From Thermoplasmata archaeon (GTDB lineage: Archaea > Thermoplasmatota > Thermoplasmata > SG8-5): a DNA stretch of 43,721 bases. Every line of letters begins with the position of its first letter. The stretch's first letter is position 1. The stretch spans positions 1 through 43,721 of the forward strand of contig JAWOHM010000083.1 in assembly GCA_046485165.1 (NCBI GenBank), read 5' to 3'. Below, one piece after another: positions 1 through 39,868 of the stretch. A model generated the notes under the pieces. It did no database searches. It was not told where the DNA came from and saw only the letters and a program-made list of their open reading frames with translations. The position numbers were made by a program, and so were the translations under genes.

Positions 1-3000
1 GCGAAGCTGTCCAGGGTCAGGTAGTCAACCGTCGGGGTGGGGGCGGCTGTGAAGTCGTTGTCGAATACCATCAGCATGTTCGGCTGCCCGTAGGGGTCGT
101 AGGACGCTTTTCTGTGGCCGAAGACATAGGTGTAGTTGTTGATGTGCTCCAGGTCGAAGACGAATCTGGTCCCGTAGTCATGGTCGCTCATCACCGGCCC
201 GTATGGCCCGTACCCGGTTTCGAACAGGGGATTCGGGCTTGTGGGGTTGTCGCACCATGTCAGGTACAGTTCCCTGTCGCCGTCAGTGTGCGCCCCTTTC
301 AGGTAAGCGCCGTAGGCCCTGTTGCTGTTGACGCCCTCCTCCGAGGTGGTGGTCTGAGGCATCATGAGGTTGTCGGTGGTGTCCCATACAGACCACATCG
401 GGCTCCATGTTCCCGTGTAGTATTGGAAGGTCGCATCCCTGTCCTGGCTGGCATCGCTGCTGTCCCTTTCGTAGTAGAACAGAACCATGTTTCCCAGCCT
501 GTCAATCTCGGTGCTCGGGAAGAAGTAAAACTTGCCCCCGACTGCCGCATCGATGCGGGTCTGCGAGCTCCATGTGGCGCCGCCGTTTGAGGATGATTTT
601 CCGACGCAGGCGATGAGAGTCTGGGTTGCGGTGTTGAGGTCAGTTCCCGAATATCCGAACACTTCCACAGTGATGTAGAACCTGTCCGCGTTCGGGACCC
701 AGTTGACGTTGACCGTCCTGTATGAGTTGCCAGCATCAACACCCTCGCCAAGGGCCCAGGCGTCCTTCTCGGTCCATTCGGTGTATGGCGGGTCTGCGTA
801 GTGCACCTTGATGTAGGAGCATCTAGTGTCTGCCGTGTTATCCATATACCCGCCAGGATTCCATGCGTTGTAGACAATCATCAGCCTGCCCTGGTATGCT
901 CCCGTTGTTGCGCGGGTGATGCCCAGGTAACCCGGGTTCCAGGAGCGTTGGCTGATCGGTATCGGGGGGGACCATTCCCTGCCTCCGTCGGAGGAGAGCG
1001 TGAAGTACACCCTGTCGCCGAACTGCTCGTCCTGCCTGTAGGCACAAGCGATGTAATCCTTGCCGCTTGCGGACCATGAGACGAATGTGGGTGCATCTTC
1101 ATGTGCAGGCGAAGCCGCCACCTCGTACACGGGGGGCGTCTTGCTCGTTACGACATCCACCTGGAACTTGATTTGTGATTGCGCAATCGGAGCCGCGCCG
1201 TCGTTGTTGGACTGTGCTTTCAAGGCCAATGTGTATGTTCCGTTGGCGACCGATCCCACGAGTATCCTGGCGTATCCGTGCACCCTGCTGCCTGCGCTGA
1301 CTGAGACCGGTGATGTCGGTTGATAGCTGTGTAACGTGAAACCGCTCGGCAGTGTCGCGCTCAATGTATAGGCATCATTGGTCGTGCCGCCGTTGTTTAT
1401 CCAGTATGGCACTACGAAGCTGCCGCTCGGCGCGCACTTGAACACCGCTTCGCCGAAATCGTCGCGCTCGGGCACGATTCTCGGCATGTCCATGTTCATG
1501 TTGACCTTGTAATTGGACCCTACGACTCCGTTGTAGGCTGAGTTCACGTCATAGCTCGCGGCCATTCCTCCTGTCACAGCGATGGTGAAAGGCCTTGCGG
1601 TGGATGATTTCCACACGACTTGTATGTTCCAAGTGCCTGTCCTGGGTGTCTCGATGCGGACTATCTCCACGTTGTTCTTGTCGTCGCCGCCGTCTTGGGC
1701 AGTGTCCCAGTCATAGGCGCCGCCGCCGACCCATGAGGGGAAGGCGCAGGTCGCCCAGTCTCCCGGGAACCCTGCCCGTATCGGTGTGGACCATGATTCT
1801 TTGAATGCATTTCCTTCATATCGCGTTCCGTCCGGACCAGTCACAACCAGGTCGAGGTCGTAGGTCAATGCCGGGTCTCCCACAGCATCCCAGTGAACCA
1901 GGGTGACCTTCAGCGGCACGGTCCTGTCGATGACGACCGTGTTCAATTGCGTCGAGGCGTCCCACGACCCGCTTCCGATGCCGGAAGCATGGTGGTACCA
2001 CTGCAACACATTGGGGAAGGCCGGCGCTATGGAGTTCCTGACATTCACGCGGCCCCAGCCCTGGTCAAAGGACGGGTATCCCAATCCCATGTCCTCAGCA
2101 CCGTGGATGAGGAGTGCCTTCATGAGCGTGGAGTGGGGCGCGGCTATGCCCTTTACGTCAACCAGGTAATCCCTTATCAGGATGGTGTCGCCGGCCGCTG
2201 CCGGGCAGGCCATGGAAGTTCCCTGGAGTGACACGTAATCTCCCTTGCCATCGGTGTTTTGGTCGATTAGTTGGTTCTCATTGTAAAGCCCGGGCACTTC
2301 CGCCTCGGACATGGCGCTGTTCTTGGTGGAATAAAATGCGGTCCCGATCTCCACGACGTCCGGTTTGAGCCTGCCGTCCGCGGTCGGGCCCCTGCTGCTG
2401 AAGGATGCCAGTTGGTTGTAGTCATCCGATGAATCGAAATCAATCGGGCGGAAGTTCTCAACTGCGCCCACCGAGATTCCCAGCTTGCCGTTGCCGCCGC
2501 CGCTCACCGTGTTCGTCCTGGGGCCGTCATTGCCGGCCGCGAACATGACCAATGAGTTGGCATTGCTGTTCATGAACGTGTCTGCCGCTGAATCATACCC
2601 GTTGGATATCCTGCTGGGCCCCCAGCTGTTGGTGAAAATCCTCGCTCCGGCCGTGTAGCCGAGGCTCCATTCGGTATCCGTCAGTTCTTCTCTGTAATAG
2701 AGGGTAGCCTCGGGTGCCCTGCCAGCGAACCCCATCCTGTCCGGCCTGTTCGCATCATTAGAAGTGGCGAGCTCGTTGTAGATGCGGTTCGTTGTGGTCA
2801 GGCCAAGGTATTGCTCCATGCTGTAACCGTTGCCTAGCGCACATCCGGCGACATGCGTTCCATGGTATTCACTGGTGCTGCTTGCCTCGGAAAATGTGAT
2901 TCTGTTGCCAAGGGGTCCCTGGGTGAAGTCCCTGTGCGTATTGTCGAATCCGATGTCCTGGACGTGAAGAATTTGCCCCTGGCCCATGATATTGGCCGGC

Positions 3001-3878
3001 AGGTTTGAAACGGTGTTCACCCAGACGTCATGGGCTTGCACAATCCTGCCGCCCACGTTGCCGAGAGTCTTCATCTCTGGGAGATTCCATACGAGCTTCA
3101 CGGATTCCATTCCCGCCACCGTGGGCAGCGCGGTTGAGTCGATGTAGCATTCGGCGCCGCCGAAATTGTTGTCGGTGATATCAAAGGCACCGAGGTTGGC
3201 CAGTTCGTCCATGATGCCGGGCACGTCATCCATGCCGTATGCCTCAACAGTTATCTTGACGATGCCGGTCGAGGGAATGTCCTTGTCCACCTTGAAGCCC
3301 GGTTCATAGACGCCGACCCACTGGACGTAGTCGAGCTTCTCGACATTAGCCCTCTGGTTCTCGGTCATCTTCACGACTACGAGGTTGTCGCCTATCTCGC
3401 GGAGTATCTTCCCGGAGAAGGCCTTAACGCCATCGTTCCAGGCCGTTTCGGTTGGTGCAACGAATTGCACCAGGTACTCATTTGAGTTCGGGTTGCGCCA
3501 TTCGGCCGCAAGCTCATAGCCAACCAGGCTGTCGAACTGTATTCCCTGCTCTGGCAGGTTGACAACCGTTCTTTCCGGCATGTCACTCATTTCGAAGCGC
3601 TGGGAGAGGTAGGTTTTTTGGCTCTCGGTCACTTTGACGTATGCTCCATACTCTCTCAAGCTCACAATGTTGGCTCCAATATCCCTGGCCGCATTTGCGT
3701 GTTCCGGTGCGGCGAAGTTCACCCAGGCGTAGGCAGTCGGACCCGCGGCATCCGGTTGGATGCCAGTTGCATCCGTTTCAATGCCTTGTGTCAATGCTAT
3801 GCCCGGCACAATCATCGCGAGCGCGATGATTATTGTTGCCATTCTCAAAATAGTCTTTCCATATTTGTCATTGCCCAT
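1..3878 (-). CDS. Secreted subtilisin-like (S8) serine protease with a C-terminal Asp-box/BNR beta-propeller-like region. Partial: the 3' end runs off the left window edge (at least 1292 aa).
   Basis: The ORF track omits it because there is no stop inside the window. My own minus-strand translation is open from ATG 3878 to position 1, and the track lists no other ORF in that frame. GGAGG lies 8 nt upstream of the ATG. The N-terminus MGNDKYGKTILRMATIIIALAMIVPGIALTQG looks like a signal peptide. S8 motifs seen: HVQDIGFD (about 2944-2970), EYHGTHVAGCA (about 2850-2880), FAAGNDGP (about 2527-2545) and LQGTSMACPAAAG (about 2200-2225). Asp-box motifs SSDGGREWS (about 965-1000) and SSNGGATWS (about 567-600) follow. 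Confidence 0.85.
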   Translation of the reverse strand, partial: MGNDKYGKTILRMATIIIALAMIVPGIALTQGIETDATGIQPDAAGPTAYAWVNFAAPEHANAARDIGANIVSLREYGAYVKVTESQKTYLSQRFEMSDMPERTVVNLPEQGIQFDSLVGYELAAEWRNPNSNEYLVQFVAPTETAWNDGVKAFSGKILREIGDNLVVVKMTENQRANVEKLDYVQWVGVYEPGFKVDKDIPSTGIVKITVEAYGMDDVPGIMDELANLGAFDITDNNFGGAECYIDSTALPTVAGMESVKLVWNLPEMKTLGNVGGRIVQAHDVWVNTVSNLPANIMGQGQILHVQDIGFDNTHRDFTQGPLGNRITFSEASSTSEYHGTHVAGCALGNGYSMEQYLGLTTTNRIYNELATSNDANRPDRMGFAGRAPEATLYYREELTDTEWSLGYTAGARIFTNSWGPSRISNGYDSAADTFMNSNANSLVMFAAGNDGPRTNTVSGGGNGKLGISVGAVENFRPIDFDSSDDYNQLASFSSRGPTADGRLKPDVVEIGTAFYSTKNSAMSEAEVPGLYNENQLIDQNTDGKGDYVSLQGTSMACPAAAGDTILIRDYLVDVKGIAAPHSTLMKALLIHGAEDMGLGYPSFDQGWGRVNVRNSIAPAFPNVLQWYHHASGIGSGSWDASTQLNTVVIDRTVPLKVTLVHWDAVGDPALTYDLDLVVTGPDGTRYEGNAFKESWSTPIRAGFPGDWATCAFPSWVGGGAYDWDTAQDGGDDKNNVEIVRIETPRTGTWNIQVVWKSSTARPFTIAVTGGMAASYDVNSAYNGVVGSNYKVNMNMDMPRIVPERDDFGEAVFKCAPSGSFVVPYWINNGGTTNDAYTLSATLPSGFTLHSYQPTSPVSVSAGSRVHGYARILVGSVANGTYTLALKAQSNNDGAAPIAQSQIKFQVDVVTSKTPPVYEVAASPAHEDAPTFVSWSASGKDYIACAYRQDEQFGDRVYFTLSSDGGREWSPPIPISQRSWNPGYLGITRATTGAYQGRLMIVYNAWNPGGYMDNTADTRCSYIKVHYADPPYTEWTEKDAWALGEGVDAGNSYRTVNVNWVPNADRFYITVEVFGYSGTDLNTATQTLIACVGKSSSNGGATWSSQTRIDAAVGGKFYFFPSTEIDRLGNMVLFYYERDSSDASQDRDATFQYYTGTWSPMWSVWDTTDNLMMPQTTTSEEGVNSNRAYGAYLKGAHTDGDRELYLTWCDNPTSPNPLFETGYGPYGPVMSDHDYGTRFVFDLEHINNYTYVFGHRKASYDPYGQPNMLMVFDNDFTAAPTPTVDYLTLDSF

Positions 3879-4289
3879 TTTACTATCCTCCTTACCATTC
3901 TCAATTTGTGGGAACCGGCCGCATTTGAACAATAACGGCACGAATCCGTTTGTCACTATCGTATATGTTTTTGACCCTATTTAATATTTCTGCAATATTC
4001 TCTTTATCGGTATTAAAGGGTTTTGATGCAATGGTATTAATTGTTTTTGCCGATAAATCCGCTCCGCGACAATCGGGGCAAGCGCTCCGGGGGTGCGGCA
4101 TTCTTTTTTGCCAGCCGAGAGAATTTTTGCCTCGGCGCCGCTTTTTTCAATAAAATTATTGTATTCAAACAATAATAATATGTGGTGTGGATTCAGCAAA
4201 TTATAAATAAGAAGCTAACATATCCTTTTTTACAAAAATTACTTTATCATAATATAGCATTGATAAAGCAAGACCGGGAGAGGAAGGAT
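3879..4289. promoter_or_regulatory. AT-rich divergent control region between the two giant S8-family genes
   Basis: This 411-bp block is visibly AT-rich next to GC-rich coding DNA. TATA-like runs include aaattataaataag (about 4198-4211) and cataatatagc (about 4249-4259), about 30-35 nt before ATG 4290. There is a palindrome TTATTGT-N6-ACAATAA (4156-4175) and a hairpin GCCGAG-N11-CTCGGC (about 4113-4135). SD-like GGAGG or GGAGAGGAAGG precedes each start. Confidence 0.5.
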
Positions 4290-4403
4290 ATGCCGACCAA
4301 CAAATCGACAAGCTTTGTTTGCGTGATGATGACTGCCGCTCTGATATGGAGCTCTTTCGGCGTGGGCCTTCTGTCCGCGCCTGCGATGGTGGAGGCGGAA
4401 GCC
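4290..4403 (+). other. Predicted signal peptide of the giant protein
   Basis: Basic N-terminus (MPTNK), hydrophobic core (FVCVMMTAALIWSSFGVGLLSAPAM) and an Ala-x-Ala-like VEAEA end. Judged by eye only. Confidence 0.6.
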
Positions 4404-7400
4404 ATCGAGTTGAATGATGTGTCCGGCCAGATGTCGGAAGGAACCCCCACAAGCACACAAAAGCCGGGCTTCAACGAAATGGAGGTATCTGGCGACGGTT
4501 ACCGCTCCAACTCATATGGCGGTTGGAGCTATGACCCCGCATCAGCCCCCGCCAACTGGAGCTTCAGAGACGCCCACAATGTTCCCCAGACAGGTTACAC
4601 GGGTGAAGGCGTCACCGTGGCAGTTGCGGATACCGGCATTGACTTTGGACTCCTGAACCTAGCCGGCAAGTACATGGTGGACGACGACCCCGAATCGCCG
4701 TACCATGGCTGGCCCGTCGCTTTCGATGCATACGGGCTGCCCGAGTTCATTCTCGCCAAGGAGGCCAGGCCAGACATGGGGGGGATTGCCAACACAACGC
4801 TGAATGGCACAGGTCCATTCGACATTGAGCATACCATAAAGGTTGATGGCCAGAAGGACTTCACCCGCAACGAGCTGGTCAGCGAGGACAAGATGGACGA
4901 TGTCAAGACCAGCGGAACCGCATCCGGTTATGAATTTGATTTAACAGAGTTGTGGGCAACCAGGGACGCTGATTTCTGGTATGCTGGACTGAAGACGCGC
5001 TACGGGGCAATGAACAGGACATTCGGTTTCGCCCTGGATTTCGACGGCCCGGCGAGCGGCTCGATTGATGACCCCCACGGCAACCTTCTCGACTTCGAAG
5101 CGTCTCATTCGGCACCCATCGAGCAGGTGTCATATTCCCCCATAAAGAACCTGGTCGCCTCATGCGCGGCATCGGGCTCAGACATCGCGACAACGAAAAG
5201 TTATGAGGTGAATTCCGTAAAAATATGGGATGTGGATGGAGCCCTAGTCCGAGCCCTCCCGAATGAGCAGTACCCGGTATTCTCGGCGATATGGAACCCC
5301 AACGGCACGCTCCTGGCATATGAGACCACCATGGAGATCGTGGTTTACGAGACAAACACATGGACAGAGGTCCATCGCGTGGAACACTCCAGTTCACCCA
5401 CAACATCATATTATCGTGAGGCCATGTCCTTCAGCCCCGACGGCACAGTGCTGGCGGCAGGGTCCATCGAGGCAACCAACCGGATACAGATATTGAATGT
5501 GGTGACCGGTGAAACGCTTCGCCCGTTGGTCCCATCCCCCGCCATGTCCGTGGTTTTCAGCCCCGACGGGACAAGCATAGCCCTCGGCCTTTCAAACGGA
5601 AAGGTCCAGCTCATCAATTCAACGAATTATCAATACACGGGCCTTCTGGAGAGCTCGGACACCAGCGCCGTAGAGACTCTGGCATGGGACCCGGACATGA
5701 AATTCATTGCCACCGGGCGAAATCTCGGGGGCCAGGTAGAGATATGGAACCTGACGAACGGCAACAACAGCTGCCAGTGGGGCGATGGCGCGAGCGTCAT
5801 TGAAAACATCACGATAATGAACAACACAGGCAACAGGATTAACGAGATAGACAGGTTTTTCTTCCGTGGCATCCCGAACGAGGTTAATGTCAGCGGCATC
5901 GAATCCTATCAGATAAGCACCAACTATTCACAGAACCTGCAATATTCGGCCATCATGCCGTCCGGCCAGAACTTCACCTGGGGCATGAGAGTGTGGGTGC
6001 GTAACCCTCTTGGAACGGAAGATGAGCTGACTGGCGGTGCCGCGGAGGCAATTGTGTACAGGAATGTCGATGGCAGTGGAATCCAACAAGGCGTTTGGAC
6101 GCCACCGAACCGGACCCTCTCCGCAACCGATTCCCTGGTGATAAGGATATACCAGGGCAGCGATGTGCCTGTCCCCGACCAGTTGGTGACCGAATTCACA
6201 ACGCATTTATTCGGCAACATAAATGGAACAATCGCAAGCCTCAATTCCAGCGCCTGGCGTGTCAACTATTTCACGAGGCGGAACATGGCAAGCATTGAGA
6301 CGGCGATGGCCGGTCACGATGTGAACTCCCCGGTCAACACAATTAAATGGACTGATTCCCAGATAATCTCGGGTTCGGATGATGGCACGGTCATATTCTG
6401 GAATCCGGTCACTTTCACAGCGACAAGCACGAAGGAAAGCCGATACAATTCTCCGGTTCTTTCCCTGGATATCAAACCGGGCACCGGCGAGCTGTTCGTC
6501 GGAACCCAGGACTGCACCGTGAGGAAGTACCCCGCAACCTGGACGAATGAACCGATTCCATTCGCGGCCCACAAGCCGGATATAATGATTTACATACGTT
6601 ATGAAAGAGAGTACTATAACCAGAACATGGAGCTCACGGTATTTGATGAGATTGGGGAGCCAGATGTCTACAAATGGAATGGGGCAGAGTGGCTCAAGAC
6701 AACCATGGACGAGATATTCGGCAAATCATTCTACAAAGGCAATCTTGCCGGGGAATGGACCGAACACGGCTTCATCGAGATAGCGCTGCCGCGCAACTTC
6801 ACGGCATACCCCGACCAGTATGAGATGTACATCAACGCTTTCATCTGCGGAGATAATGCATCAAGGCCGCAGGACACAGTGCCATCGGACTGCAACGTGC
6901 CCTCGGTCAATGTGGACTGGTCCGGCACCAGGATGACCACGCTCAGCGCGTGGGGGAAGGTCGAGATGCAGAAGGTCGCCCTCAACCACTCCGCAATAGC
7001 AAGTGTCCGGCCATTGGACAATCGTTCATACCATTTCGGCTACCACCCCAGTGGTGCCCTGACGAATCTGTTCGGCTCGGCACTCCCGATGATAGTCACC
7101 GAATCCGCCACAGCCGGAATTTGGGACCGGGTGTATGTCGATATGAATCTCGACTATGTCATAGATTCCAACGATCCTTTCGTGGACAAGGACAACCCAT
7201 TGCTTACCGTGGATATCTGGGACTATGACCCGGTTTCCCGAACCGCCGTGCCGGGCGAGGATGGCGTGCCGGACATATCGGGCGGGTTGCTGTATTTCAT
7301 AGCAGACGGTGAGAACCTGATGCCGTACTCTGAGAGAGTTTCAGACATACTGGTAGATGCCGAGAGGGTGTTGATACCATTCGGCACAACAGACAATCCC

Positions 7401-10400
7401 TGGAACATACCCAGGAATGGCGAGGTCGTGGCCTTCTTCGGGGATTTCGATTACGACAGCAACCAGGACATTGTGTTGTCGAGCGGCACCAAGATGGCAT
7501 CTGCCATTGCTGGCTCCGGCCTCACGGAGGGGCTGTTTTCCCCGATAGAAGGGGTCAGCCCGAACATAACATTCCTTCCGATATGCAATGCCCATTATGA
7601 CCTGCCGATGGCCCTGTACTTTGCTGTCGAAGGCTATGATGGCATTCCGAATTCCGGCGACGAGGCTCAGATAGTGTCGGTCGGCCCCTATGTTACAGGT
7701 TATGGCAATGGCTTGGATTCAACAACCCAATTCGTGGAATACCAGGTCAGCAGGACAAACAACAGCGCCGTCTTCATATCGCCCGCGGGCAATGATGGCA
7801 GCGGATACGGGACTGTTGCGGCGCCTTGCGGAACGAACACGCTCGTCGTCGGCTTTGCCGAGGATAACACATTCATTGCCAGCGGCGGAGATGTCCATCA
7901 TTTCGGCCAGGTCAGCGAGCTATCTTCCAGGGGCCCGACCGCAGCGGGCCTCGCAAAGCCCGATGTGATTGCGCTCGGAATAGGTGAAGTCGATACGCCA
8001 TTGGTAATATCCAAGTCATTGCAGAATGCCGTTGGGGGAAAGAGCCAAGAAGTCTGGAAGGGGAGCGAGATGGCCACGGCAGTCACAACGGGCGTCATGG
8101 CATTGATATTCGAATCTTACGCAGAGAAACATGGCGGCGCTTATCCCTCTACCCAGGTGGCGATGGACATTATCCGTTCCTCCGCGACAGACCTGGGCTA
8201 TGATCCTCTGGCCCAGGGCGCGGGATTCGTGGACGCCCTCGCTGCTGTCAGGACAGCCAAAAATGAGGAAGGCCTTGTGATATCTGCCCAGAAGACGTCC
8301 TTCGGAAACACATTCGGCTCTTCGTATGATTCGTTCATAAACGTCCTTGCGCCTGGAGAAAACAGCGCATTGCCAATGAACATTCAGAACCCCACAAATT
8401 CATCAAAGAATGTCAACTATGGATTTGAGTATATGACCAGAACCAAGGCCGATGAGATGACCCAAATAATCGAATCAAGCTCGTTGGACGGGTTCAAGGG
8501 CGACATCTCCGGGATGGTTTCCATAGATGCCGAATTGGTCAAGGTAACCGCCCAGACCGATTATGTCTGGACGGAGCCATGGGTGAACGGCACCGGCGTG
8601 GATGTCAAGGACTTCGCATCCGTGAGCGGTTCCTTCTTCATGAAACTCTGGGACTGGGTGGACGCCCAATCTCCCGGGGACCCCAAGCACGGAATAATCG
8701 ACACAGATGATGATTTAAGTTATCTGACCGGCGTCGATTACGGGCATGTCAATTCGATGATATGCACATTGTCCAACCCCCATCGCAGCCTGGCTGGAAA
8801 ACTGGTTGTGGAGATAAAGGCCGATATGGCCGCGGGCAGTTCAATTCCGGATCGGCCTTGGAAGATAACGGTCGAGTCATTCGTCACAACATCGATGGAC
8901 TGGTTTGACACATCCAAGACTGCAGCGAGCATTGCGGGCGGCAACACGGACACAGTCAATCTGAATGTTGACGTCCCTGCAGACGCCCAGTCCGGGACAT
9001 ATTCGGGCGCTTTCGTGGCGTCCTATGGCATAAAAGAAGTAAATTGGACGCAAAACATAACGCCCGCCGCCATCGATGCGGAGTTCCTCACATCATGGAA
9101 CGCAGCTTCCAAAGGCAATTACTGGGACGGGGACATCACAACGCCGCATCCCATTGATTACGGGAAGTTTGACTACCACCCGCTGGCCACTCCCGCCGAT
9201 ACTTACTCAACGAGCCGCACCCCAATGCCGCCAATTCTGATAGTCGGCAATGCGAATTTCACCGAGGGCAATGGGGTTTTGCGCGGCGACGGTTCCGTCG
9301 CGGATCCGTACATAATCGAGAACTATGACATCGGTGGCACTACCCATAAACACGGTATTGAGATCATGGATACGGATGCGCACTTCATAATCCGCAATTG
9401 CGCCATACATGGCAGGACGGATACGATGAATGGCATATCAATGAACAATGTCACGAACGGTGTCATCCGCGAGAGCGAAGTATATACAAACACGGGAAGC
9501 GGAATCTACATTCTGGATTCCAATGGATTGTTGATAGAAAACAACCGCATAGAAGGGAACGACCAAATGGGAATAGTGATATCGGGTTCAATTGCTGTCT
9601 CCTCAGACATCATAGTTCAAGATAACGATATATCACTATCTGTCACAACCATTTTGTTGTCCTATGCCAACAACATCACCATTATCGGAAATGACTTGCA
9701 CCATTCCGCTCTTGGCATGGAGCTATACACAATAGTCGATAATTTGATTGCTGGCAACAGCTTCCACAATATTTCAATGTATTGCATGTATCTCTATGGG
9801 GTGCAACGCAATGAGATATCATCGAATTGGTTCGATGGCTTCAGCGATGTCGTACCATCGCTATGGCTGGACTCGACATCCGATCCGGTCGGCAACGCGA
9901 CCATCAACAACATAATCTCCGGAAATGATTTCGTGAACTGCGTCGCCACCCATGCCTATGACGATGACCCTGGTGCCACCAACAATTGGACCGGTAATTA
10001 CTGGGGGGGCAGCTACGGCATCAATGATGGGGGAAGCGGTTCCGGGGTGGCGGACAATGCCCAGGAAACAGGCCCGGTTGCCTCGGCCCGGGATTATTAT
10101 GTCCCCAGAGTCCCGATAACGATAGAGGCCAATGCCGGTTTCACGCCGGCAAACGGTGTTGTCAGCGGCAACGGAAGCGAGCCCAATCCCTATGTCATAG
10201 CCGGATGGGGCTTGAACAACAGCGGCAGCCCCCACGCCATACTCATACAGGACACAACCGCCCACTTCGTGATAATGGACTGCCTGATATATGGCAACGC
10301 TACAGGCAGTGGCATCATCCTTTCCAATGTAGCCAACGGCACTGTCAGGTCCAACGAATTCCACACGCTTGCCGATGCGATTCATGTAGAGGAATCGATT

Positions 10401-13400
10401 GATTTCTCTATTATTATGAACAACATTCACGACTCAGCAACAGCCATTCATGTTCTGGAATCAGAACTCGGAATGATATCATACAATGATATAAGTTCAT
10501 GCATTCATGGCATATACCTGCAGTCCTCAACGTCATGTGAACTTTCCTGCAACCAGATTGCAGGGAACGCCCTCACCGGCATATTCAACGAATTCTCGGA
10601 TGAGAGTATAATTAAAGACAATACTATCATTGGAGTAACCAAGGACGGAATTCATCTCAAGGAATCTGGGGATTGCGAGTTAACTTTCAACAACCTCACC
10701 TCGAATGGGTATGGCATTCATTTGTCCAATGCCACAGGTATAAATGAGCTGAACAACAACAACTTCTTCGGAAACACGGTCCATGCATGTGACGATTTCA
10801 CCTACGAGCAGATTGTTTCCCTTGTCAAATTGCCCAACACCCGGGTCACAGATATCAATGTCGAAATCGTGGTGATGAAGCCAGATGGTTCGATTGAGGA
10901 ACTCGGGCCAGGCAATTACACAATCTACCAGAAGGCCGGAATGATCGAGATGGCCGTCCCGGTTCGGCTGGATCAGTTCAGAATGGATGTGGACAGGGCA
11001 TTCTACATATGGGCAAATTACACTTACTTCAGCAATACGGGCATAGTGCCAATTACCCTGAACGTGATGGCGTCCACAACCGCCGAGTTCAGTTTCGGCG
11101 ACATGAACGCCACCGAGACGCCAAACATCATGCCAGTCTGGGGCCTGAGAGCCGGCCAGGGCAATTCCCTGGAGAGTGGCGACCGCAGGTACTTCTATGT
11201 CAATGTCCCGAACCAGGGCAGGTTCGGCCCAGGGCAGGCCGAGAATTTCTACCTGTACACGGAATTGATGTGGGGCCTGAATCGCAGTGACATCAACATT
11301 GTCGTCTATGGCAAGGGCGGTGCCCCAATATCCGGCCAAGTGGCGCCTTATGTCATGTCAAAGCTCGGCGGCAGCGAGGAGAAGGCGGATTTCAGCCCGA
11401 CAACCGCAACCGGCGGGCCCAAGGACATATTGGTCACATCATTCAATCATGAGATACTGGCGATTTGCGTCTCATCCAAGACATTTAATGGATCTGGCGA
11501 TTCGCTGACAAGGTTCGAGGGCAGGGGCGGATGGCTGAAACTCGGCGAGACCAGCCCCAAGACCTGGACGAACAGCCTGGTCGGAAGCATGGATGTTTCA
11601 ATACAATCCAATTTGGAGCTGTCCTCGGGGATTTATGCGTCCATCGTGGGCCCAGCCCAGGGCGCCAGAACCACCGAAGACATATACCAGGATGACCTAT
11701 CGCTGTACGACCTAAGCACCATGGAAGGGTGGCTCACAATGAATGCCGTGGCCGGTTTCACCAAGGTGTTCACGGTGGAGAACGCGCTCAGCTGGGATGT
11801 GCACATATTTGGCGATGCCACATGCCCGGACCTTGACCTTGCGGTGTTCATGGACGGTTTGAACGGCCAACCGAAAGACGGAATTGCCCAATGGCAGGAG
11901 ATAATCACCCAGGACGACATGGATTTCGAATCATATGGTCAGACCTATGGGACCGGAAGGTACGCCTACAGCGCCGATGCGGATGCGGACGAGGCAATCA
12001 AGTTCATCAGCCCCCCGAATGGCGATTACATCGTGAAGGTGCTGGCCTATACGGTCAACGCAGCACCCGGCCATTTCGACCTCGAGGTCAAGACGATATT
12101 TGCAGGTGTCGAGGGTTATAAGCTCCTGAGTGTCAACACGCAGTACACCGACGAGAATGCCACCAGCGGAACTTACCTGAACGCATCCGCGGTGAAGCGT
12201 TTCGATGTGAGAACGTTCAATGTGTTGTGGTCCTTCCCTGAGGACACCAAGGACGATGTCTACGGCGGCATATTCGTTCTGGGCATACCGGAAGCCCCAC
12301 AGCTGTTGGTGTTCTCCATCGACATCGTATTGGACAGGGAAGCCCCCCTCCTCTTCCCCGATTTCACCGGACCAAATTCCATAGTCTCCAATAATAGGCC
12401 GACCATCAGCGCCAAGATAGAGGACTTCGAGAGGGGCGAGATAGACCCCAATGGGGCCAAGGTCATTTTCGATGGCGTGGACATTACCAGCATCGCTACG
12501 ATATCCATACCGCTCACCGAGAACTCCGCGGAACTCGAAGCCTACTGGTCCGGGAATATAATCTACAAGCCGGCCGGGCCATTGTCAGAAGGCGGCCACA
12601 ACATATTCGTCGAGGTCAAGGACAAGGCCGGGAACGCCCGCTCGATATCCTGGGGCTTCACGGTGGACACGACAAGGCCGTTCATAACAATCAACGGTCC
12701 CGTCGAGACAATCAATACCAATTCAAGGGCATATAGGTTGGAAGGGGCCACCGAGGCGAGTTCCACATTGAGCATCGCTGGCGTCACCGGGGCCGTGAGG
12801 CAACGCAGCGACAATACGTTCACCATAGACCTGGAACTTGAAGAGGGCGCAAACCTCCTCACCATCAGAAGCACCGACCAGGCAAATAACGTACATGAGG
12901 TGTCCAGAACGCTGATACTTGACACCCAGCCATCAACCTTCAAGCGGGTCGTGGCGCTGGACGGCACCACAACCAACAGGAGGACGACCGGCATATACGG
13001 CGAGATGAGCGAACCCGGTTCCCTGCAAATCAACGGAATGCCTGTTCGGGTCAACAGCGACGGCACGTTCAGGCATGAGGCTATCTCCCTGATAGAGGGC
13101 CGCAACCCGCAGGTTCTGGCATTCACCGACCTTGCCGGAAATGTCGCGTACAACTACATGAACATCACGCTGGACACCGCAGCGCCGGTGCTCACGCTGA
13201 CGGACATCGATGCAACGGTCTATTCCGAGGCGCTCAACATCACGGGAAAGACCGAAGCCGGTGTTGCCTCGCTCACCATCAACGGGTGGCTGGCAGCCGT
13301 GGACTCCGCCGGCAACTTCCAGCAGAGCCTGAGGCTCAGCCCCGGGACCAACACCATCGTCGTGGAGACCAAGGACCGCGCAGGCAATTCCGCCCAGGAG

Positions 13401-13916
13401 ATACTGACAGTGAATTACGTCACTGATACTGGCGGAAGGAACTGGGGCGCGATAGGCCTGATGATAGGCCTGTTGATAATCGGCCTGATACTCGGGATAT
13501 TGCTGGCTCCCATCGTCCTGGGATTGTTCGGTGACAAGGAACCGGCACCGGAAGCGGAAGTGCCGCCGGAAGGTGAGGATATACTATCGGAATCGGGCAT
13601 GCCGCCTGAGGAATTCCCCGAAGGCGAGGCCCTGCCCGAAGGTGAGGCAGAGCCCGCCAGCGTCCCGGATGGCGAGGAACAGCCGGCGATGGATGATGCC
13701 GAGATAGCCGATGCCGAGACAGAGCCCATTCCCGCCGAGGAGTCAATTCCCGAGGAACTGCCAGCCGAACCCGTGGCAGAGACGGAAGAGCTCCCTCCCG
13801 AGCCTGCGCCGGCCGAAGAGGACCCCAGGATAGCAAAGCTCACGCAGGCATACGAGTCCGGGAAGATATCCAAGGAGCTATACGAGAAGAACCTGGCGAA
13901 ATTCAAGGGCCAGTAA
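4290..13916 (+). CDS. Giant (about 3208 aa) membrane-anchored surface protein. It has a subtilase-like scaffold split by a beta-propeller insertion, two parallel beta-helix modules, a PPC-like domain, Ig-like repeats, a TM helix, an acidic tail and a SHOCT-like end.
   Basis: The track ORF is 4182..13916. ATG 4290 is preferred because it has an SD-like ggagaggaagg upstream and the signal-like MPTNKSTSFVCVMMTAALIWSSFGVGLLSAPAMVEAEA begins there. Motifs seen: GVTVAVADTGID (Asp codon 4629), SPYHGWPVAF (His codon 4704), FISPAGNDGSG (Asn codon 7791) and WKGSEMATAVTTGVMALI (8055-8110). WD40-like strings include SPDGTVLAAGS, FSPDGTSIALGLSNGKVQLIN and SGSDDGTVIFWN. NosD/PbH1-like repeats, a PPC-like DLDLAVFMDG...DYIVKVLAY segment, Ig-like AGN..xxxFTVDT repeats and the TM helix GLMIGLLIIGLILGILLAPIVLGLF are also present. 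Confidence 0.85.
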   Translation: MPTNKSTSFVCVMMTAALIWSSFGVGLLSAPAMVEAEAIELNDVSGQMSEGTPTSTQKPGFNEMEVSGDGYRSNSYGGWSYDPASAPANWSFRDAHNVPQTGYTGEGVTVAVADTGIDFGLLNLAGKYMVDDDPESPYHGWPVAFDAYGLPEFILAKEARPDMGGIANTTLNGTGPFDIEHTIKVDGQKDFTRNELVSEDKMDDVKTSGTASGYEFDLTELWATRDADFWYAGLKTRYGAMNRTFGFALDFDGPASGSIDDPHGNLLDFEASHSAPIEQVSYSPIKNLVASCAASGSDIATTKSYEVNSVKIWDVDGALVRALPNEQYPVFSAIWNPNGTLLAYETTMEIVVYETNTWTEVHRVEHSSSPTTSYYREAMSFSPDGTVLAAGSIEATNRIQILNVVTGETLRPLVPSPAMSVVFSPDGTSIALGLSNGKVQLINSTNYQYTGLLESSDTSAVETLAWDPDMKFIATGRNLGGQVEIWNLTNGNNSCQWGDGASVIENITIMNNTGNRINEIDRFFFRGIPNEVNVSGIESYQISTNYSQNLQYSAIMPSGQNFTWGMRVWVRNPLGTEDELTGGAAEAIVYRNVDGSGIQQGVWTPPNRTLSATDSLVIRIYQGSDVPVPDQLVTEFTTHLFGNINGTIASLNSSAWRVNYFTRRNMASIETAMAGHDVNSPVNTIKWTDSQIISGSDDGTVIFWNPVTFTATSTKESRYNSPVLSLDIKPGTGELFVGTQDCTVRKYPATWTNEPIPFAAHKPDIMIYIRYEREYYNQNMELTVFDEIGEPDVYKWNGAEWLKTTMDEIFGKSFYKGNLAGEWTEHGFIEIALPRNFTAYPDQYEMYINAFICGDNASRPQDTVPSDCNVPSVNVDWSGTRMTTLSAWGKVEMQKVALNHSAIASVRPLDNRSYHFGYHPSGALTNLFGSALPMIVTESATAGIWDRVYVDMNLDYVIDSNDPFVDKDNPLLTVDIWDYDPVSRTAVPGEDGVPDISGGLLYFIADGENLMPYSERVSDILVDAERVLIPFGTTDNPWNIPRNGEVVAFFGDFDYDSNQDIVLSSGTKMASAIAGSGLTEGLFSPIEGVSPNITFLPICNAHYDLPMALYFAVEGYDGIPNSGDEAQIVSVGPYVTGYGNGLDSTTQFVEYQVSRTNNSAVFISPAGNDGSGYGTVAAPCGTNTLVVGFAEDNTFIASGGDVHHFGQVSELSSRGPTAAGLAKPDVIALGIGEVDTPLVISKSLQNAVGGKSQEVWKGSEMATAVTTGVMALIFESYAEKHGGAYPSTQVAMDIIRSSATDLGYDPLAQGAGFVDALAAVRTAKNEEGLVISAQKTSFGNTFGSSYDSFINVLAPGENSALPMNIQNPTNSSKNVNYGFEYMTRTKADEMTQIIESSSLDGFKGDISGMVSIDAELVKVTAQTDYVWTEPWVNGTGVDVKDFASVSGSFFMKLWDWVDAQSPGDPKHGIIDTDDDLSYLTGVDYGHVNSMICTLSNPHRSLAGKLVVEIKADMAAGSSIPDRPWKITVESFVTTSMDWFDTSKTAASIAGGNTDTVNLNVDVPADAQSGTYSGAFVASYGIKEVNWTQNITPAAIDAEFLTSWNAASKGNYWDGDITTPHPIDYGKFDYHPLATPADTYSTSRTPMPPILIVGNANFTEGNGVLRGDGSVADPYIIENYDIGGTTHKHGIEIMDTDAHFIIRNCAIHGRTDTMNGISMNNVTNGVIRESEVYTNTGSGIYILDSNGLLIENNRIEGNDQMGIVISGSIAVSSDIIVQDNDISLSVTTILLSYANNITIIGNDLHHSALGMELYTIVDNLIAGNSFHNISMYCMYLYGVQRNEISSNWFDGFSDVVPSLWLDSTSDPVGNATINNIISGNDFVNCVATHAYDDDPGATNNWTGNYWGGSYGINDGGSGSGVADNAQETGPVASARDYYVPRVPITIEANAGFTPANGVVSGNGSEPNPYVIAGWGLNNSGSPHAILIQDTTAHFVIMDCLIYGNATGSGIILSNVANGTVRSNEFHTLADAIHVEESIDFSIIMNNIHDSATAIHVLESELGMISYNDISSCIHGIYLQSSTSCELSCNQIAGNALTGIFNEFSDESIIKDNTIIGVTKDGIHLKESGDCELTFNNLTSNGYGIHLSNATGINELNNNNFFGNTVHACDDFTYEQIVSLVKLPNTRVTDINVEIVVMKPDGSIEELGPGNYTIYQKAGMIEMAVPVRLDQFRMDVDRAFYIWANYTYFSNTGIVPITLNVMASTTAEFSFGDMNATETPNIMPVWGLRAGQGNSLESGDRRYFYVNVPNQGRFGPGQAENFYLYTELMWGLNRSDINIVVYGKGGAPISGQVAPYVMSKLGGSEEKADFSPTTATGGPKDILVTSFNHEILAICVSSKTFNGSGDSLTRFEGRGGWLKLGETSPKTWTNSLVGSMDVSIQSNLELSSGIYASIVGPAQGARTTEDIYQDDLSLYDLSTMEGWLTMNAVAGFTKVFTVENALSWDVHIFGDATCPDLDLAVFMDGLNGQPKDGIAQWQEIITQDDMDFESYGQTYGTGRYAYSADADADEAIKFISPPNGDYIVKVLAYTVNAAPGHFDLEVKTIFAGVEGYKLLSVNTQYTDENATSGTYLNASAVKRFDVRTFNVLWSFPEDTKDDVYGGIFVLGIPEAPQLLVFSIDIVLDREAPLLFPDFTGPNSIVSNNRPTISAKIEDFERGEIDPNGAKVIFDGVDITSIATISIPLTENSAELEAYWSGNIIYKPAGPLSEGGHNIFVEVKDKAGNARSISWGFTVDTTRPFITINGPVETINTNSRAYRLEGATEASSTLSIAGVTGAVRQRSDNTFTIDLELEEGANLLTIRSTDQANNVHEVSRTLILDTQPSTFKRVVALDGTTTNRRTTGIYGEMSEPGSLQINGMPVRVNSDGTFRHEAISLIEGRNPQVLAFTDLAGNVAYNYMNITLDTAAPVLTLTDIDATVYSEALNITGKTEAGVASLTINGWLAAVDSAGNFQQSLRLSPGTNTIVVETKDRAGNSAQEILTVNYVTDTGGRNWGAIGLMIGLLIIGLILGILLAPIVLGLFGDKEPAPEAEVPPEGEDILSESGMPPEEFPEGEALPEGEAEPASVPDGEEQPAMDDAEIADAETEPIPAEESIPEELPAEPVAETEELPPEPAPAEEDPRIAKLTQAYESGKISKELYEKNLAKFKGQ
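5100..6540 (+). other. WD40/beta-propeller-like repeat region inserted between the His and Asn motifs of the subtilase scaffold
   Basis: Repeated SPDG/WxPxG plus hydrophobic-strand patterns: VKIWDVDG, AIWNPNGTLLAYET, MSFSPDGTVLAAGS, VVFSPDGTSIALGLSNGKVQLIN, LAWDPDMKFIATG, VEIWNLTNG, SGSDDGTVIFWN, LSLDIKPGTGELFVGTQDCTVRKY. Confidence 0.6.
9226..10800 (+). other. Two tandem right-handed parallel beta-helix (PbH1/NosD-like) modules
   Basis: Both modules open with a similar header. Module 1 has PPILIVGNANFTEGNGVLRGDGSVADPYIIENYDI (from about 9226). Module 2 has PRVPITIEANAGFTPANGVVSGNGSEPNPYVIAGWGL (from about 10105). Each is followed by periodic xxNxIxxNxxxGIxL repeats. Confidence 0.65.
13441..13913 (+). 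other. C-terminal TM helix, Pro/Glu-rich acidic tail and SHOCT-like terminal motif
   Basis: NWGAIGLMIGLLIIGLILGILLAPIVLGLFG is followed by KEPAPEAEVPPEGED...EELPPEPAPAEEDP and then RIAKLTQAYESGKISKELYEKNLAKFKGQ. The last segment fits the pattern of the short C-terminal SHOCT domain. Confidence 0.55.
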
Positions 13917-14026: not shown

Positions 14027-15244
14027 TCAATCCCTTAATATCGCATCGAACGCCCTCATGCACCTGACCACCCACACCTCTTCCTTTGTCAGGCCCTTTG
14101 TGTCAATGGTCTTCCTGATCTCATCGGAGTTGACCAGCTTGATGGCGAGCGGGTGGCCCTGGGTCATGGCGAACACCCTGTCCCCGTCCTCCGGGTCCAT
14201 GCCCATGGATGTCATGAGCCTCATAGCGCTATCCCTTTCCAACCCTTTCAAAACCAGCTCGTTGCCCCCATCCATTCCCGGGAATGTCATGAGCGACTCC
14301 CTGTCCCTGGTCATGATGATGATGGTGGAATTTTCCATCTTATGCGACTCCTCGCAGACAAGGTGCACGAATTGCATGACCTCCTTTTTCAGGTCGAATA
14401 TGTTGTCCAGCACCATCACCGTATCGCTGTCCCGGATGTCCCTGAAGAGGGCGGCCGCCCCCTGCCCGACATCCACATCCCTCGTCACCCTCAGGTATTT
14501 CCTGAGCTCGTTTCTTCCCAGATGGACAAGGAATTCGGAGATGCGCTCGAGCATGCTGCGCACTGAATCCCACTCGTGGGCCGAGTACCACATGATGTTC
14601 TTCCTGCCCTCGAATTCTTTCAGGACCTTCCATCCGAGCGAGGTCTTGCCTATGCCCTTGATGCCGCTTATGACCAGCAATCTCTCCCCGTTCCCTATCC
14701 TTTCTCGGAGAAATCCCATCTCCGCGGCACGGCCTATGAAATTGATTGGGATTGGCAGCACATCCAGGTTGGATATGAACCCCCTGCCGGCTTCTCCGGC
14801 GAGGGATGCTTCGAGAACGACGCCGTCCCTGAAGTAGGCCATTATCACCGAGGATGGCGTGGCATTCTTCGCATTGAACAGGATGTCCTGGATGGTGAGG
14901 CTCTTTTCCGCGCCCTCCAGGTCCCTGAACATGACACTCTGCCCCTTGAGCTTCGAGATGAGGCCCAGGGACATCTCCATGCCTTTGGCGGTTAGGGAGA
15001 AAGCCTTCCTCTTCCTCTTGAGGCCACCGATATGGACGAGCGCCTCCTCCACATACCCATCCCCGAGCAGATTGCCCGTCGCCCTCGGAACATGGTTTAT
15101 CCGTATCCCGATGGCCTCTGCGATGCCTTCCTGTGTCTGGCCGAGGGATGCGCCCTCGTTCACCGGGTCCATGCTGAAGTCCCTGAGATGGATGAGTATG
15201 CGCTCGTTCACGCTGAGGTCTTCTATTCGCATCAAATAGGGCAT
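14027..15244 (-). CDS. Winged-helix DNA-binding domain fused to an NB-ARC/STAND-like P-loop NTPase, with no C-terminal sensor repeats (405 aa)
   Basis: The N-terminal roughly 95 aa look like a wHTH (LGQTQEGIAEAIGIRINHVPRATGNLLGDGYVEE...KRKRKAFSLTAKG). Then come Walker A ISGIKGIGKTSLG, Walker B VMVLDNIFD, an RNBS-B/sensor-like TIIIMTRDRE, LVLKGLERDSAMRLM and a GxP motif TQGHPLAIKLV. Spacing is typical of NB-ARC. The protein ends about 37 aa after the GxP motif. Confidence 0.7.
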   Translation of the reverse strand: MPYLMRIEDLSVNERILIHLRDFSMDPVNEGASLGQTQEGIAEAIGIRINHVPRATGNLLGDGYVEEALVHIGGLKRKRKAFSLTAKGMEMSLGLISKLKGQSVMFRDLEGAEKSLTIQDILFNAKNATPSSVIMAYFRDGVVLEASLAGEAGRGFISNLDVLPIPINFIGRAAEMGFLRERIGNGERLLVISGIKGIGKTSLGWKVLKEFEGRKNIMWYSAHEWDSVRSMLERISEFLVHLGRNELRKYLRVTRDVDVGQGAAALFRDIRDSDTVMVLDNIFDLKKEVMQFVHLVCEESHKMENSTIIIMTRDRESLMTFPGMDGGNELVLKGLERDSAMRLMTSMGMDPEDGDRVFAMTQGHPLAIKLVNSDEIRKTIDTKGLTKEEVWVVRCMRAFDAILRD

Positions 15245-35260: not shown

Positions 35261-35519
35261 TAAACCCCACCTACGTTCAAGAGTTGAATGCAACAATAAT
35301 CAATGAATAGCAACGCATTCAACCATGGCGCGGAAACAAAGAATGACTAAATCCAGCGCCATGTGACTCACTTTATTTTGCAAACAAATGGTGAATGCGA
35401 TAGCTAAATCCAAACCAAAAATAGCATTCGCCTTGAATCGGCATTATGAAAACAATGAGATTCACAGCGTTTTCCGGTAATCGGCAATCTGCAAACGATG
35501 AGATTACCGCTCCGAAACC

Positions 35520-35527
35520 CTAATATC
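35520..35527 (+). promoter_or_regulatory. TATA-like box about 26 nt upstream of the RuBisCO ATG (leaderless-type arrangement)
   Basis: cTAATATc lies at 35520-35527. ATG 35549 has no SD-like sequence in between. Confidence 0.4.
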
Positions 35528-35548
35528 CCGGACAGCCATTCCATCATC

Positions 35549-36967
35549 ATGAACAAGAAGGAGTTGCTGAAGACCCTGAACGCCCACCAGCAGGCGTACG
35601 TGAATCTTGATTTGCCGAACCCCGCCAACGGGGAATACATGCTTGCCGTATTCTCGATGAAGCCCGGCGGCAAGCTGAACATGCTTCAAGCGGCATGCGA
35701 GGTCGCGGCGGAATCATCCACCGGCACTAATTTTCTGGTGAACACGGAGACCCCATTTTCCAGGGAGATGAATGCCCTTGTCTACGACATAGATTCGGAG
35801 CATGTCTGGATTGCATTCCCCACACGTCTGTTCGACCGGGGGGGCAACATCCAGAATATACTCACATATGTCGTCGGGAACGTTCTCGGCATGAAAGAGG
35901 TGAATGCCCTCAGGCTCGAGGATGTATGGTTCCCGCCCGCAATGCTGGAGCAATACGACGGCCCCAGTTACACAATAGATGATATGAGGAGATACCTGGA
36001 TGTGCATGACAGACCAATTCTGGGCACCATAGTCAAGCCCAAGATGGGCTTGACATCCGCAGAGTACGCCGAGGTATGCTACGACTTCTGGGTCGGGGGA
36101 GGCGATTTCGTGAAGAACGATGAGCCGCAGGCCAACCAGGATTTCTGCCCGTATGACAAGATGGTGCGCCATGTAAAAATGGCAATGGACAAGGCGGTGA
36201 AAGAGACCGGCCGGAAAAAGGTCCATTCGTTCAATGTATCCGCTGCGGATTACGATACAATGCTCCAACGCTGCGAGCTCATAAGGAGCGCGGGATTCGA
36301 GCCGGGCAGCTATGCATTTCTCATAGATGGAATCACCGCTGGATGGATGGCGGTGCAGACCCTGAGGCGCATGTACCCAGACGTTTTCATACATTACCAC
36401 AGGGCATCCCACGGCGCCTACACCAGGCCCGAGAATGCATTCGGGTTCTCCGTGCTCGTGCTCTCGAAGTTCGCACGCCTGGCAGGCGCCTCTGGCATAC
36501 ACACAGGGACCGCAGGTGTCGGAAAGATGAAGGGCACTCCCGAGGAGGACATCACCGCGGCCAATGCCATATTAAGGATGAAAAGCAAGGGTCATTTCTT
36601 CGAGCAATCTTGGGCCACAGTCGGCGAGGGAGACAGCGACATTGCAGTTCTTATCAAGCAGGACGCCAGGGGCAAGGAGGTACTGAAGGATGATGACTGG
36701 CGAGGAATGAAAAAATGCTGCCCGATAATTTCCGGCGGCCTCAATCCCACACTTCTCAAACCGTTCATTGATGTGATGGGCCACACGGAGTTCATCACCA
36801 CCATGGGCGCGGGTTGCCATGCACATCCCCGCGGGACCAAGGCCGGCGCGGCCGCATTGGTGCAGGCCTGCGACGCATATTTAAAGGGTGTGGATATCCA
36901 CAAATACGCAAAGAACCGCAAGGAACTGGCCGAAGCGATTACTTTCTTCGGGAAGGTCAAGAAATAA
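35549..36967 (+). CDS. rbcL: RuBisCO large subunit, form II-like (form II/III type in an archaeal context)
   Basis: Strings shared with form II enzymes as I remember them (for example Rhodospirillum rubrum): YVNL, AAESSTGTN, ALVYD, GTIVKPKMGL, GGGDFVKNDEPQANQ, HYHRASHGA, ARLAGASGIHTGTAGVGKMKG and CCPIISGGLN. The track ORF starts at 35498. ATG 35549 (MNKKELL) is preferred. Confidence 0.88.
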   Translation: MNKKELLKTLNAHQQAYVNLDLPNPANGEYMLAVFSMKPGGKLNMLQAACEVAAESSTGTNFLVNTETPFSREMNALVYDIDSEHVWIAFPTRLFDRGGNIQNILTYVVGNVLGMKEVNALRLEDVWFPPAMLEQYDGPSYTIDDMRRYLDVHDRPILGTIVKPKMGLTSAEYAEVCYDFWVGGGDFVKNDEPQANQDFCPYDKMVRHVKMAMDKAVKETGRKKVHSFNVSAADYDTMLQRCELIRSAGFEPGSYAFLIDGITAGWMAVQTLRRMYPDVFIHYHRASHGAYTRPENAFGFSVLVLSKFARLAGASGIHTGTAGVGKMKGTPEEDITAANAILRMKSKGHFFEQSWATVGEGDSDIAVLIKQDARGKEVLKDDDWRGMKKCCPIISGGLNPTLLKPFIDVMGHTEFITTMGAGCHAHPRGTKAGAAALVQACDAYLKGVDIHKYAKNRKELAEAITFFGKVKK

Positions 36968-39839: not shown

Positions 39840-39868
39840 GTTATTGCATCAAGCAATAAATTAATAAG

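Follow-up and report, generated by a model that had tools for sequence, protein, structure and literature searches.

Tripeptidyl peptidase II (TPPII; S8A; PDB 3lxu) and the pyrolysin-type proteases are large, multidomain subtilases whose S8 fold is extended by a large insertion that separates the catalytic Asp from the His. TPPII has an intact triad and works as a cytosolic exopeptidase; its insert is about 200 amino acids (aa) long. CspC and CspA of Clostridioides difficile are S8 folds whose catalytic residues are substituted. Both occur in bacterial spores, are about 550 aa long, have prodomains, contain no domain insertions and act as small-molecule germinant sensors. In CspC, T170 and G485 are found at the His and Ser positions, respectively. 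CspA and CspC work with, and are genetically linked to, their active paralog CspB, and the residues of their pseudo-active sites can be conserved and matter to the structure (PMC7200643). Here we analyzed a 43,721-nucleotide contig of a Thermoplasmata archaeon (JAWOHM010000083.1 of assembly GCA_046485165.1; hereafter the window), in which the gene at 4290..13916 (+) encodes a 3208-aa protein that was named BIG. Like TPPII, BIG is a large multidomain protein whose S8 fold has a large Asp–His insertion. It differs from TPPII in its broken triad and in an Asp-to-His distance of 951 aa, which holds nested X, WD40 and extra domains. Like the two Csp proteins, it has an S8 fold with substituted catalytic residues. 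It differs from them in being an archaeal, predicted membrane-anchored surface protein of 3208 aa, with Glu/Asp instead of Gly at the Ser position. An S8 fold, a triad substituted across the clade and a linked active paralog, which together mark a pseudoprotease, were all found for BIG; the likeness to Csp is a functional analogy only.

Active-site residues of the split S8 domain

The Peptidase_S8 profile (PF00082) matched only aa 1066–1305 of BIG, corresponding to profile positions 57–279 of 288 (E = 1.7e-14; 54.2 bits against a cut-off of 21.8). BIG matched solved subtilases at E = 1e-11 in a phmmer search, and its S8 N-terminal segment matched relatives at independent E-values of 1e-13 to 1e-15. 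By these matches, the S8 homology of BIG is far above chance. A profile of the family matched TPPII (3lxu) at E = 6e-18 and Tk-SP (3afg) at E = 8.5e-32. Its two parts fell consecutively on Tk-SP, the N segment on residues 14–64 and the C segment on residues 55–304, and the N segment co-occurred with the C core in about 200 relatives. The alignments indicate that the N-terminal Asp segment and the C-terminal Asn/Ser segment are one S8 domain, in agreement with the original prediction, which had been made from the window alone. The family consensus reads VAVxDSGIDFAHPDL...SPYxGWPxxFD, then the insert, xHGTLCASxIAGQG, GNGGxGYGT and WGGTSxSxPVxAG. Another structure, 8jmw (Bacillus Vpr fibrils), was set aside as not specifically related.

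The S8 N-terminal segment (aa 85–160; 4542..4769, +) was delimited by family alignments. It contains strand e1 with Asp114 and the family motif SPYHGWPVAFD, which includes the non-catalytic H139. The S8 C-terminal core (aa 1061–1335; 7470..8294, +) was delimited by Pfam, solved-subtilase, family and triad-intact alignments and by structure modeling. The residues quoted in the original prediction are real, as is its open reading frame (ORF). They are D114 (codon 4629, in VAVADTGID), H139 (codon 4704, in YHGWPVA), N1168 (codon 7791, in SPAGNDGSG), S1259 (codon 8064) and E1260 (codon 8067).

Catalytic columns were assigned with a hidden Markov model (HMM) built from 120 triad-intact relatives and residues 50–275 of subtilisin BPN'; BIG and its own clade were excluded. 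In this triad-intact HMM, KGSEMATAVTTG of BIG was aligned to sGTSlAtPvaAG with posterior '*', placing GTS on G-S1259-E1260, and VLSSGTKMAS was aligned to gggHGTlvAs. H64, N155 and S221 of BPN' shared the columns of S1065, N1168 and E1260, respectively. The phmmer alignment to the solved subtilases 5fax and 1wmd put kGSEMAT opposite gGTSMAT. E1260 was at the nucleophile position in 3/3 independent alignments (phmmer, family alignment and triad-intact HMM), as the original prediction had claimed, and Ser occupied this column in all 158 canonical relatives. The Ser motif with S1259 and E1260 is KGSEMATAVTTGVMALI. The true His motif is at aa 1062–1074 (VLSSGTKMASAIA), where S1065 replaces the His; its core, S-S1065-GTKMAS, corresponds to HGTxxAS. 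The remaining equivalents are G1132 for Ser125 (codon 7683), S1259 for Thr220 and A1264 for Pro225 (codon 8079), and the codon of S1065 is at 7482. The catalytic Asp (D114 = D32) and the oxyanion-hole Asn (N1168 = N155) are kept, whereas the Ser and His of an active peptidase are missing. We also considered S1259 as a shifted nucleophile. This was rejected, because the E1260–G1268 spacing of 8 equals the S221–G229 spacing, so that S1259 could serve only with a one-residue bulge in helix F.

The 3D structure of aa 100–1299 was modeled using AlphaFold 2 (AF2) with a 40-sequence alignment and was compared with the secondary-structure limits of BPN'. In the model, a strand (model residues 10–14) ends at D114, a helix starts from S1065 (model residue 966), and a strand precedes G-N1168. 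E1260 is framed by a strand and by a helix starting at S1259 (model residue 1160). The predicted local distance difference test (pLDDT) scores were 81–95 at the active-site positions, 87–94 at the S1065 and S1259 helix starts and 88–95 in the S8 N-terminal segment. A chimera with the insert deleted (aa 85–162 + 907–1340) was modeled from the single sequence and was unusable (mean pLDDT 31).

Judged by its residues, BIG is unable to act as a classical serine protease, because it lacks its nucleophile and general base as well as further positions that are otherwise invariant. The Ser-to-Glu change of the original prediction holds, but it is not the sole loss: the equivalents of His (Ser1065), Ser125 and Pro225 are also gone. 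The clade of BIG keeps all the structural Gly and Pro columns in which canonical relatives are invariant, and the columns of H64, S125, N155, T220, S221 and P225 were changed. This is a pseudoenzyme signature of retained fold and lost chemistry.

Nested domains in the Asp–His interval

As the true His motif comes after the insertion, the break in the S8 fold falls between Asp and His. The original prediction had placed the insertion between His and Asn and had filled it with WD40 repeats, as a propeller of about 1000 aa. The insertion instead occupies the Asp–His interval, as it does in TPPII, and the propeller makes up about 310 aa (272–493 + 673–760) of the 951-aa distance, the rest being nested domains. 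The median Asp-to-His distance was 224 aa among the canonical relatives, against 779 aa among the non-canonical ones. No similarity was detected between the BIG-family insert and the TPPII insert; the match to 3lxu covered only profile positions 354–634, its start lying about 11 positions ahead of the His motif.

P0124 and other WD40-free relatives aligned to BIG 85–154 and then to 911–1402. Because these alignments skip the stretch between, aa ~155–910 are extra on top of a basal insert. This basal insert (aa 911–1060; 7020..7469, +) precedes the His helix and is family-wide, aligning to all WD40-free relatives (e.g. P0124 291–415). Its consensus is YHxGxHPD ... VLVVDE..AGVYDTVYVDLN ... DISGGLLYFIADG ... 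NGELVAF.

The X domain was recognized in P0161 and P0162, in which the counterparts of BIG 134–271 and 760–962 form one contiguous domain. The BIG propeller (272–760) therefore sits inside X. The N-terminal half of X (aa 161–271; 4770..5102, +) is beta-rich, and the C-terminal half (aa 761–910; 6570..7019, +) was delimited by relatives' alignments. The N-terminal half was present in 32 non-canonical relatives. P0161 and P0162 come from JGI metagenomes, where they are named 'WD40 repeat protein'. They belong to the S8 subfamily of BIG and share its X domain and a WD40 propeller in the Asp–His interval; unlike BIG, they keep H, N and S (GTSLASP). The position of the propeller also differs: it lies after the contiguous X in these two triad-intact proteins and inside X in the clade of BIG.

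Pfam WD40-type propeller families matched aa ~272–512 and 664–744. Foldseek gave target-normalized template modeling (TM) scores of 0.85–0.87 to the 7-bladed WD40 domains 5yzv, 7bie and 3ow8. The first part of the propeller (aa 272–493; 5103..5768, +) was modeled with a pLDDT of about 90. The last blades (aa 673–760; 6306..6569, +) include a Pfam WD40 (PF00400) match at aa 673–705 (42.6 bits against a cut-off of 27). Between them lies a stretch of 180 aa (aa 494–672; 5769..6305, +; pLDDT < 50). Because it is missing from P0001 and P0121, it is a further insert within the propeller. A counterpart was detectable only in P0206, so that BIG and P0206 are its sole carriers.

The insertion is thus a nest of a basal insert, the X domain, the WD40 propeller and the extra 180-aa insert. 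Read from Asp to His, the 951 residues begin with the SPYxGWP motif, continue with X and the domains nested in it, and end with the basal insert, which is beta-rich. From the alignments, WD40 propellers seem to have entered the Asp–His interval at two different points.

The non-canonical clade and rival readings of its site

The first homolog search used aa 61–1400 as the query. It was flooded by unrelated WD40 proteins, with only P0001 being useful, and was redone with WD40-free queries. An exhaustive search of 1.84 billion cluster representatives gave 996 matches at E ≤ 1e-3 and 117 at E ≤ 1e-30. By homology, these searches define a distinct S8 subfamily. H, N and S were present at the His, Asn and Ser positions in 167 of the 231 scored relatives. 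In a neighbor-joining (NJ) tree, 43 non-canonical leaves formed one contiguous clade, adjoining the triad-intact, WD40-bearing P0161 and P0162. Clade members are mostly 2000–3700 aa. About 37 representatives of this size share one architecture: Xn-[WD40]-Xc in S8, the mid region, the Ig stalk, the transmembrane segment and the conserved tail.

His was kept in 28 clade members, and 27 of these had D, E or H at the Ser position. Their states (His/Asn/Ser) were H/D/D in 13, H/N/D in seven, including the nearest relatives P0206, P0207 and P0208, and H/N/H in three; H/N/E (P0001), H/E/D, H/E/E, H/D/E, H/S/D and H/D/Y were also found. In His-lost members, His was replaced by Q, G, K, R, I, S, Y, W, A or D, and the Ser position held A, G, V, F, W, M or Y. 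In about three lineages, namely the large His-lost group, P0209/P0210 and P0218, the loss of His was accompanied by that of its partner residue at the Ser position. BIG (S/N/E) is the sole clade member that lost His and kept the acidic residue. The co-occurrence of the two residues and their joint losses suggest that the His–carboxylate pair has some structural or functional role in the clade.

P0206 (MBU4144229.1; Candidatus Thermoplasmatota archaeon; 3326 aa; 'right-handed parallel beta-helix repeat-containing protein') resembles BIG in its S8 region (67% identity), domain order, nested insert, beta-helices and flanking genes. It differs from BIG in keeping His (THGTQMAS), in having Asp at the Ser position (SSDLAS) and in the Tyr of its SPYxGWP motif. 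Named clade members come from metagenome-assembled genomes of Candidatus Thermoplasmatota, Thermoplasmata or 'Euryarchaeota'. They are automatically annotated as 'S8 family serine peptidase' or as 'right-handed parallel beta-helix repeat-containing protein'. In the literature, no description of WD40-inserted or Asp/Glu-substituted archaeal subtilases was found. The clade is undescribed, its sequences being public yet uncharacterized. The architecture, which the original prediction had not recognized from earlier descriptions, is absent from the papers found but not unique to BIG, as at least 43 cluster representatives are present in public metagenomes. The P0001 gene (L002:10001-16795) ends at 1795 aa, just past the first beta-helix block, and is followed in L002 by a separate 432-aa Beta_helix/NosD ORF; here the giant gene may have been split or frameshifted.

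We consider it probable that BIG is a membrane-anchored surface protein whose head is non-catalytic and serves for binding or as a scaffold, possibly partnered with the neighboring protease. A pseudoprotease reused as a binding or scaffold module, as put forward before, remains the best reading, although the site is more degenerate than had been claimed. Several points weigh against it. The AF2 model was moderate (mean pLDDT 74, pTM 0.59), and the Foldseek top 50 for the 1200-aa model contained only WD40 structures, leaving the S8 part unranked. Synteny is the sole ground for the partner-docking step. Asp or Glu is at the nucleophile position in 24 of the 27 His-retaining members, at a median identity of 41%, which hints that the site still does something, and BIG retains its Glu despite the His loss. 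Within the clade, His at the H139 column is found only in BIG, where the true His is S, and in P0121, where it is Q. The kept acidic residue could mean that the site was re-tooled into an Asp/Glu-His-Asp constellation, either with new chemistry (a carboxylate as nucleophile or general base) or for metal or ligand binding. Asp-nucleophile alpha/beta-hydrolases offer a parallel for a carboxylate nucleophile. We give a small chance to BIG being of this type. The pairing of His with D, E or H in 27 of 28 members and the joint losses in three lineages speak for it, as do the change of Asn155 to Asp in 24/43 and the presence of Asp at the Ser position in 21/27 at a median identity of 41%, which is above the mean column conservation of 0.57. 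However, BIG has Ser1065 and no His, and therefore has no such triad. In addition, E, D and H swap at the Ser position, the nucleophile column is only 76th among 281 columns by conservation, the substrate-binding equivalent of Ser125 is missing, and the covariation comes from about 3–4 independent events on an NJ tree only. The chance is slim that the clade site was converted to an Asp/Glu-His-Asp(-Asp) carboxylate-nucleophile or metal center from which BIG (Ser-Asn-Glu + His139) was derived further; to our knowledge, such a center has never been described in a subtilisin fold of clan SB. Because its His is lost, a new catalytic or metal site in BIG itself is unlikely.

The other explanations concern H139 and the sequence itself. 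The original prediction had placed Asp114 and His139 in the triad, with a propeller of about 1000 aa between His and Asn and only the Ser changed. YHGWPVA is superficially like HGTHVA and lies 25 aa past the Asp. However, the H139 column of triad-intact relatives holds Y (52), F (17), D (17), A (13) and N (10), with His in only 2. At least 130 triad-intact relatives have Y, F, D, A or N here, and in all of them the insert is followed by an HGT(L/M)CAS motif of its own. The Tk-SP counterpart of H139 is an Asp four residues ahead of the catalytic His, and it is SSGTKMAS that aligns to HGTxxAS and starts a helix in the AF2 model. H139 is hence not the catalytic His, and this layout is most improbable. 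Alternatively, H139 of the SPYxGWP loop could have replaced the lost His of position 1065 in BIG and P0121. These two are the only clade members with His at this column, and their true His is replaced by S and Q, respectively; in the nearest relatives P0206, P0207 and P0001, the column is Tyr and the true His is kept. The H139 of BIG and P0121 could be a coincidence within one lineage or a compensating His. We find a relocated catalytic His very unlikely: the two proteins are close relatives and possibly represent a single event, and the column is about four residues before His64, in the D60 region of BPN', which is outside bonding distance of the nucleophile. Even so, there would be no Ser nucleophile. 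A sequencing or assembly error, or a decaying pseudogene whose true gene reads GTSMA, has a negligible chance. The ORF is intact over 9.6 kb, and E1260 (GAG) and S1065 (AGC) are each at least two substitutions from Ser and His codons, respectively. Independent assemblies have D or E at the same position with the same architecture and synteny, so that the Glu is no sequencing error.

Protein build, gene surroundings and proposed role of BIG

BIG is encoded by a single unbroken ORF at 4182..13916 (+). ATG 4290 is the first ATG with a Shine–Dalgarno-like GGAGAGGAAGG upstream and is the likely start. The complete gene (4290..13916, +; stop codon included) is colinear with that of the 3326-aa P0206. 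Hydropathy, with a peak at aa 9–30, points to a signal-like hydrophobic N-terminal segment (aa 1–35; 4290..4394, +). The S8 domain is followed by a beta-sandwich region common to the family (aa 1341–1600; 8310..9089, +), for which Pfam gave weak NPCBM_assoc/WxLIP-like hints. Two right-handed parallel beta-helix (NosD-like) modules come next (aa 1601–1930 + 1931–2250; 9090..11039, +). They matched PF05048 NosD (E = 2.5e-34, 119 bits) and PF13229 Beta_helix (E = 9e-28, 97 bits), both above cut-off, as well as TIGR03804 repeats, and are confined to the nearest relatives of BIG. A conserved 'mid' region of the giant-protein family (aa 2251–2700; 11040..12389, +) was delimited by relatives' alignments. 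It is followed by Ig-like stalk domains of the Big_13/Glucodextran_B type (aa ~2701–3045; 12390..13424, +; Pfam Glucodextran_B E = 2.6e-25, Big_13 E = 2.9e-17).

One transmembrane segment was found at the C-terminal end (aa ~3050–3083; 13437..13538, +; hydropathy > 2.5 over 19-residue windows). After it, an acidic, Pro-rich tail of about 125 aa (13539..13913, +) ends in ...AYESGKISKELYEKNLAKFKGQ. The distant relative P0159 has the same tail ending (...AYDEGKISKEVYEENLRKITGE). The tail is presumably cytoplasmic, and its conservation in 25 family members suggests a conserved intracellular contact. BIG contains 48 N-x-S/T sequons, compared with 32.8 ± 5.2 in shuffled sequences. Its signal-like N-terminus, single C-terminal transmembrane segment and sequon excess are not accompanied by homology to known S-layer proteins. 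In a sub-region search (E up to 1), nothing in Pfam significantly matched the X domain, the nested 180-aa insert, the 'mid' region or the tail.

A divergent S8 protease gene (1..3878, −) lies next to the BIG gene and runs past the window edge. Its product matched Pfam S8 at E = 6e-33 over profile positions 2–288. As noted in the original prediction, its motifs are canonical (HGTHVAG, AAGNDGP and GTSMACP), and its triad is intact. The two genes share a 411-bp AT-rich divergent intergenic region (3879..4289). Orthologs of the neighbor were found divergently upstream of a giant gene in four other genomes (five loci with the window). They are at 4678-9717 of L001 (GCA_022848865.1), 2743-7806 of L003 (GCA_046761005.1), L004:3290-9310 (L004/L005; JGI 3300020171 and ENA) and 2742-7628 of L006 (GCA_016214785.1). 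GTS(M/A) was kept in each, while the giant proteins at the paired loci were only 33–67% identical to BIG. The neighbor is a triad-intact S8 protease of 1600–2000 aa. All four complete orthologs (L001, L003, L004 and L006) lack a hydrophobic C-terminal end and have a common C-terminal '...AYWV..W..P' motif; the window copy is cut by the edge. The P0001 locus (L002) has no neighbor protease.

L004 and the window share NB-ARC, M24, Exo_endo_phos, Pus10, DUF655, SerRS and ABC genes. The NB-ARC/AAA_16 (STAND-like) ATPase ORF (405 aa; 14027-15244, −) is directly downstream of the giant gene and convergent with it, and is kept at the same place in L004 and L005. More giant surface-protein genes lie beyond the partner protease at L004:1-2729 and L006:1-2450. 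The product of one is a Cleaved_Adhesin protein of more than 1700 aa; that of the other exceeds 2400 aa and combines Peptidase_C11, M14 and CARDB domains. This hints at a surface protease and adhesin gene neighborhood. The rest of the window is archaeal housekeeping, including Pus10 with an archaeal THUMP domain, DUF655, SerRS and geranylgeranyl reductase. A RuBisCO large-chain homolog (489 aa; 35498-36967), a GTP-type PEPCK (37941-39839) and tRNA-Phe(GAA) (39868-39941) are unrelated to the finding.

In our reading, BIG is a protein of the cell envelope of a Thermoplasmatota archaeon, anchored in the membrane by its C-terminal end and probably N-glycosylated. Its distal N-terminal head is an S8 fold that is no longer a serine protease. 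The dead S8 cleft and the WD40 propeller may form a protein-binding head, which the beta-helix, beta-sandwich and Ig-like modules would hold off the membrane. The secreted, anchor-less, triad-intact S8 protease next door, or its substrates, would be the most likely ligand, because the pairing with an anchor-less active subtilase is conserved. The head might dock, present or regulate that protease or its substrates, as CspA/CspC do with CspB.

These results bear on the subtilisin fold and on archaeal protease biology. The loop before the His helix tolerates three levels of nested domain insertion. At least 43 representatives annotated as S8 serine peptidases cannot be such, so that Thermoplasmatota protease inventories are inflated. 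The acidic residue that recurs with His at the nucleophile position leaves a small chance that the subtilase fold holds a functional site of a new kind. The conserved side-by-side genes for a dead subtilase with an anchor and an active one lacking it suggest that proteases and pseudoproteases are partners on archaeal cell surfaces.

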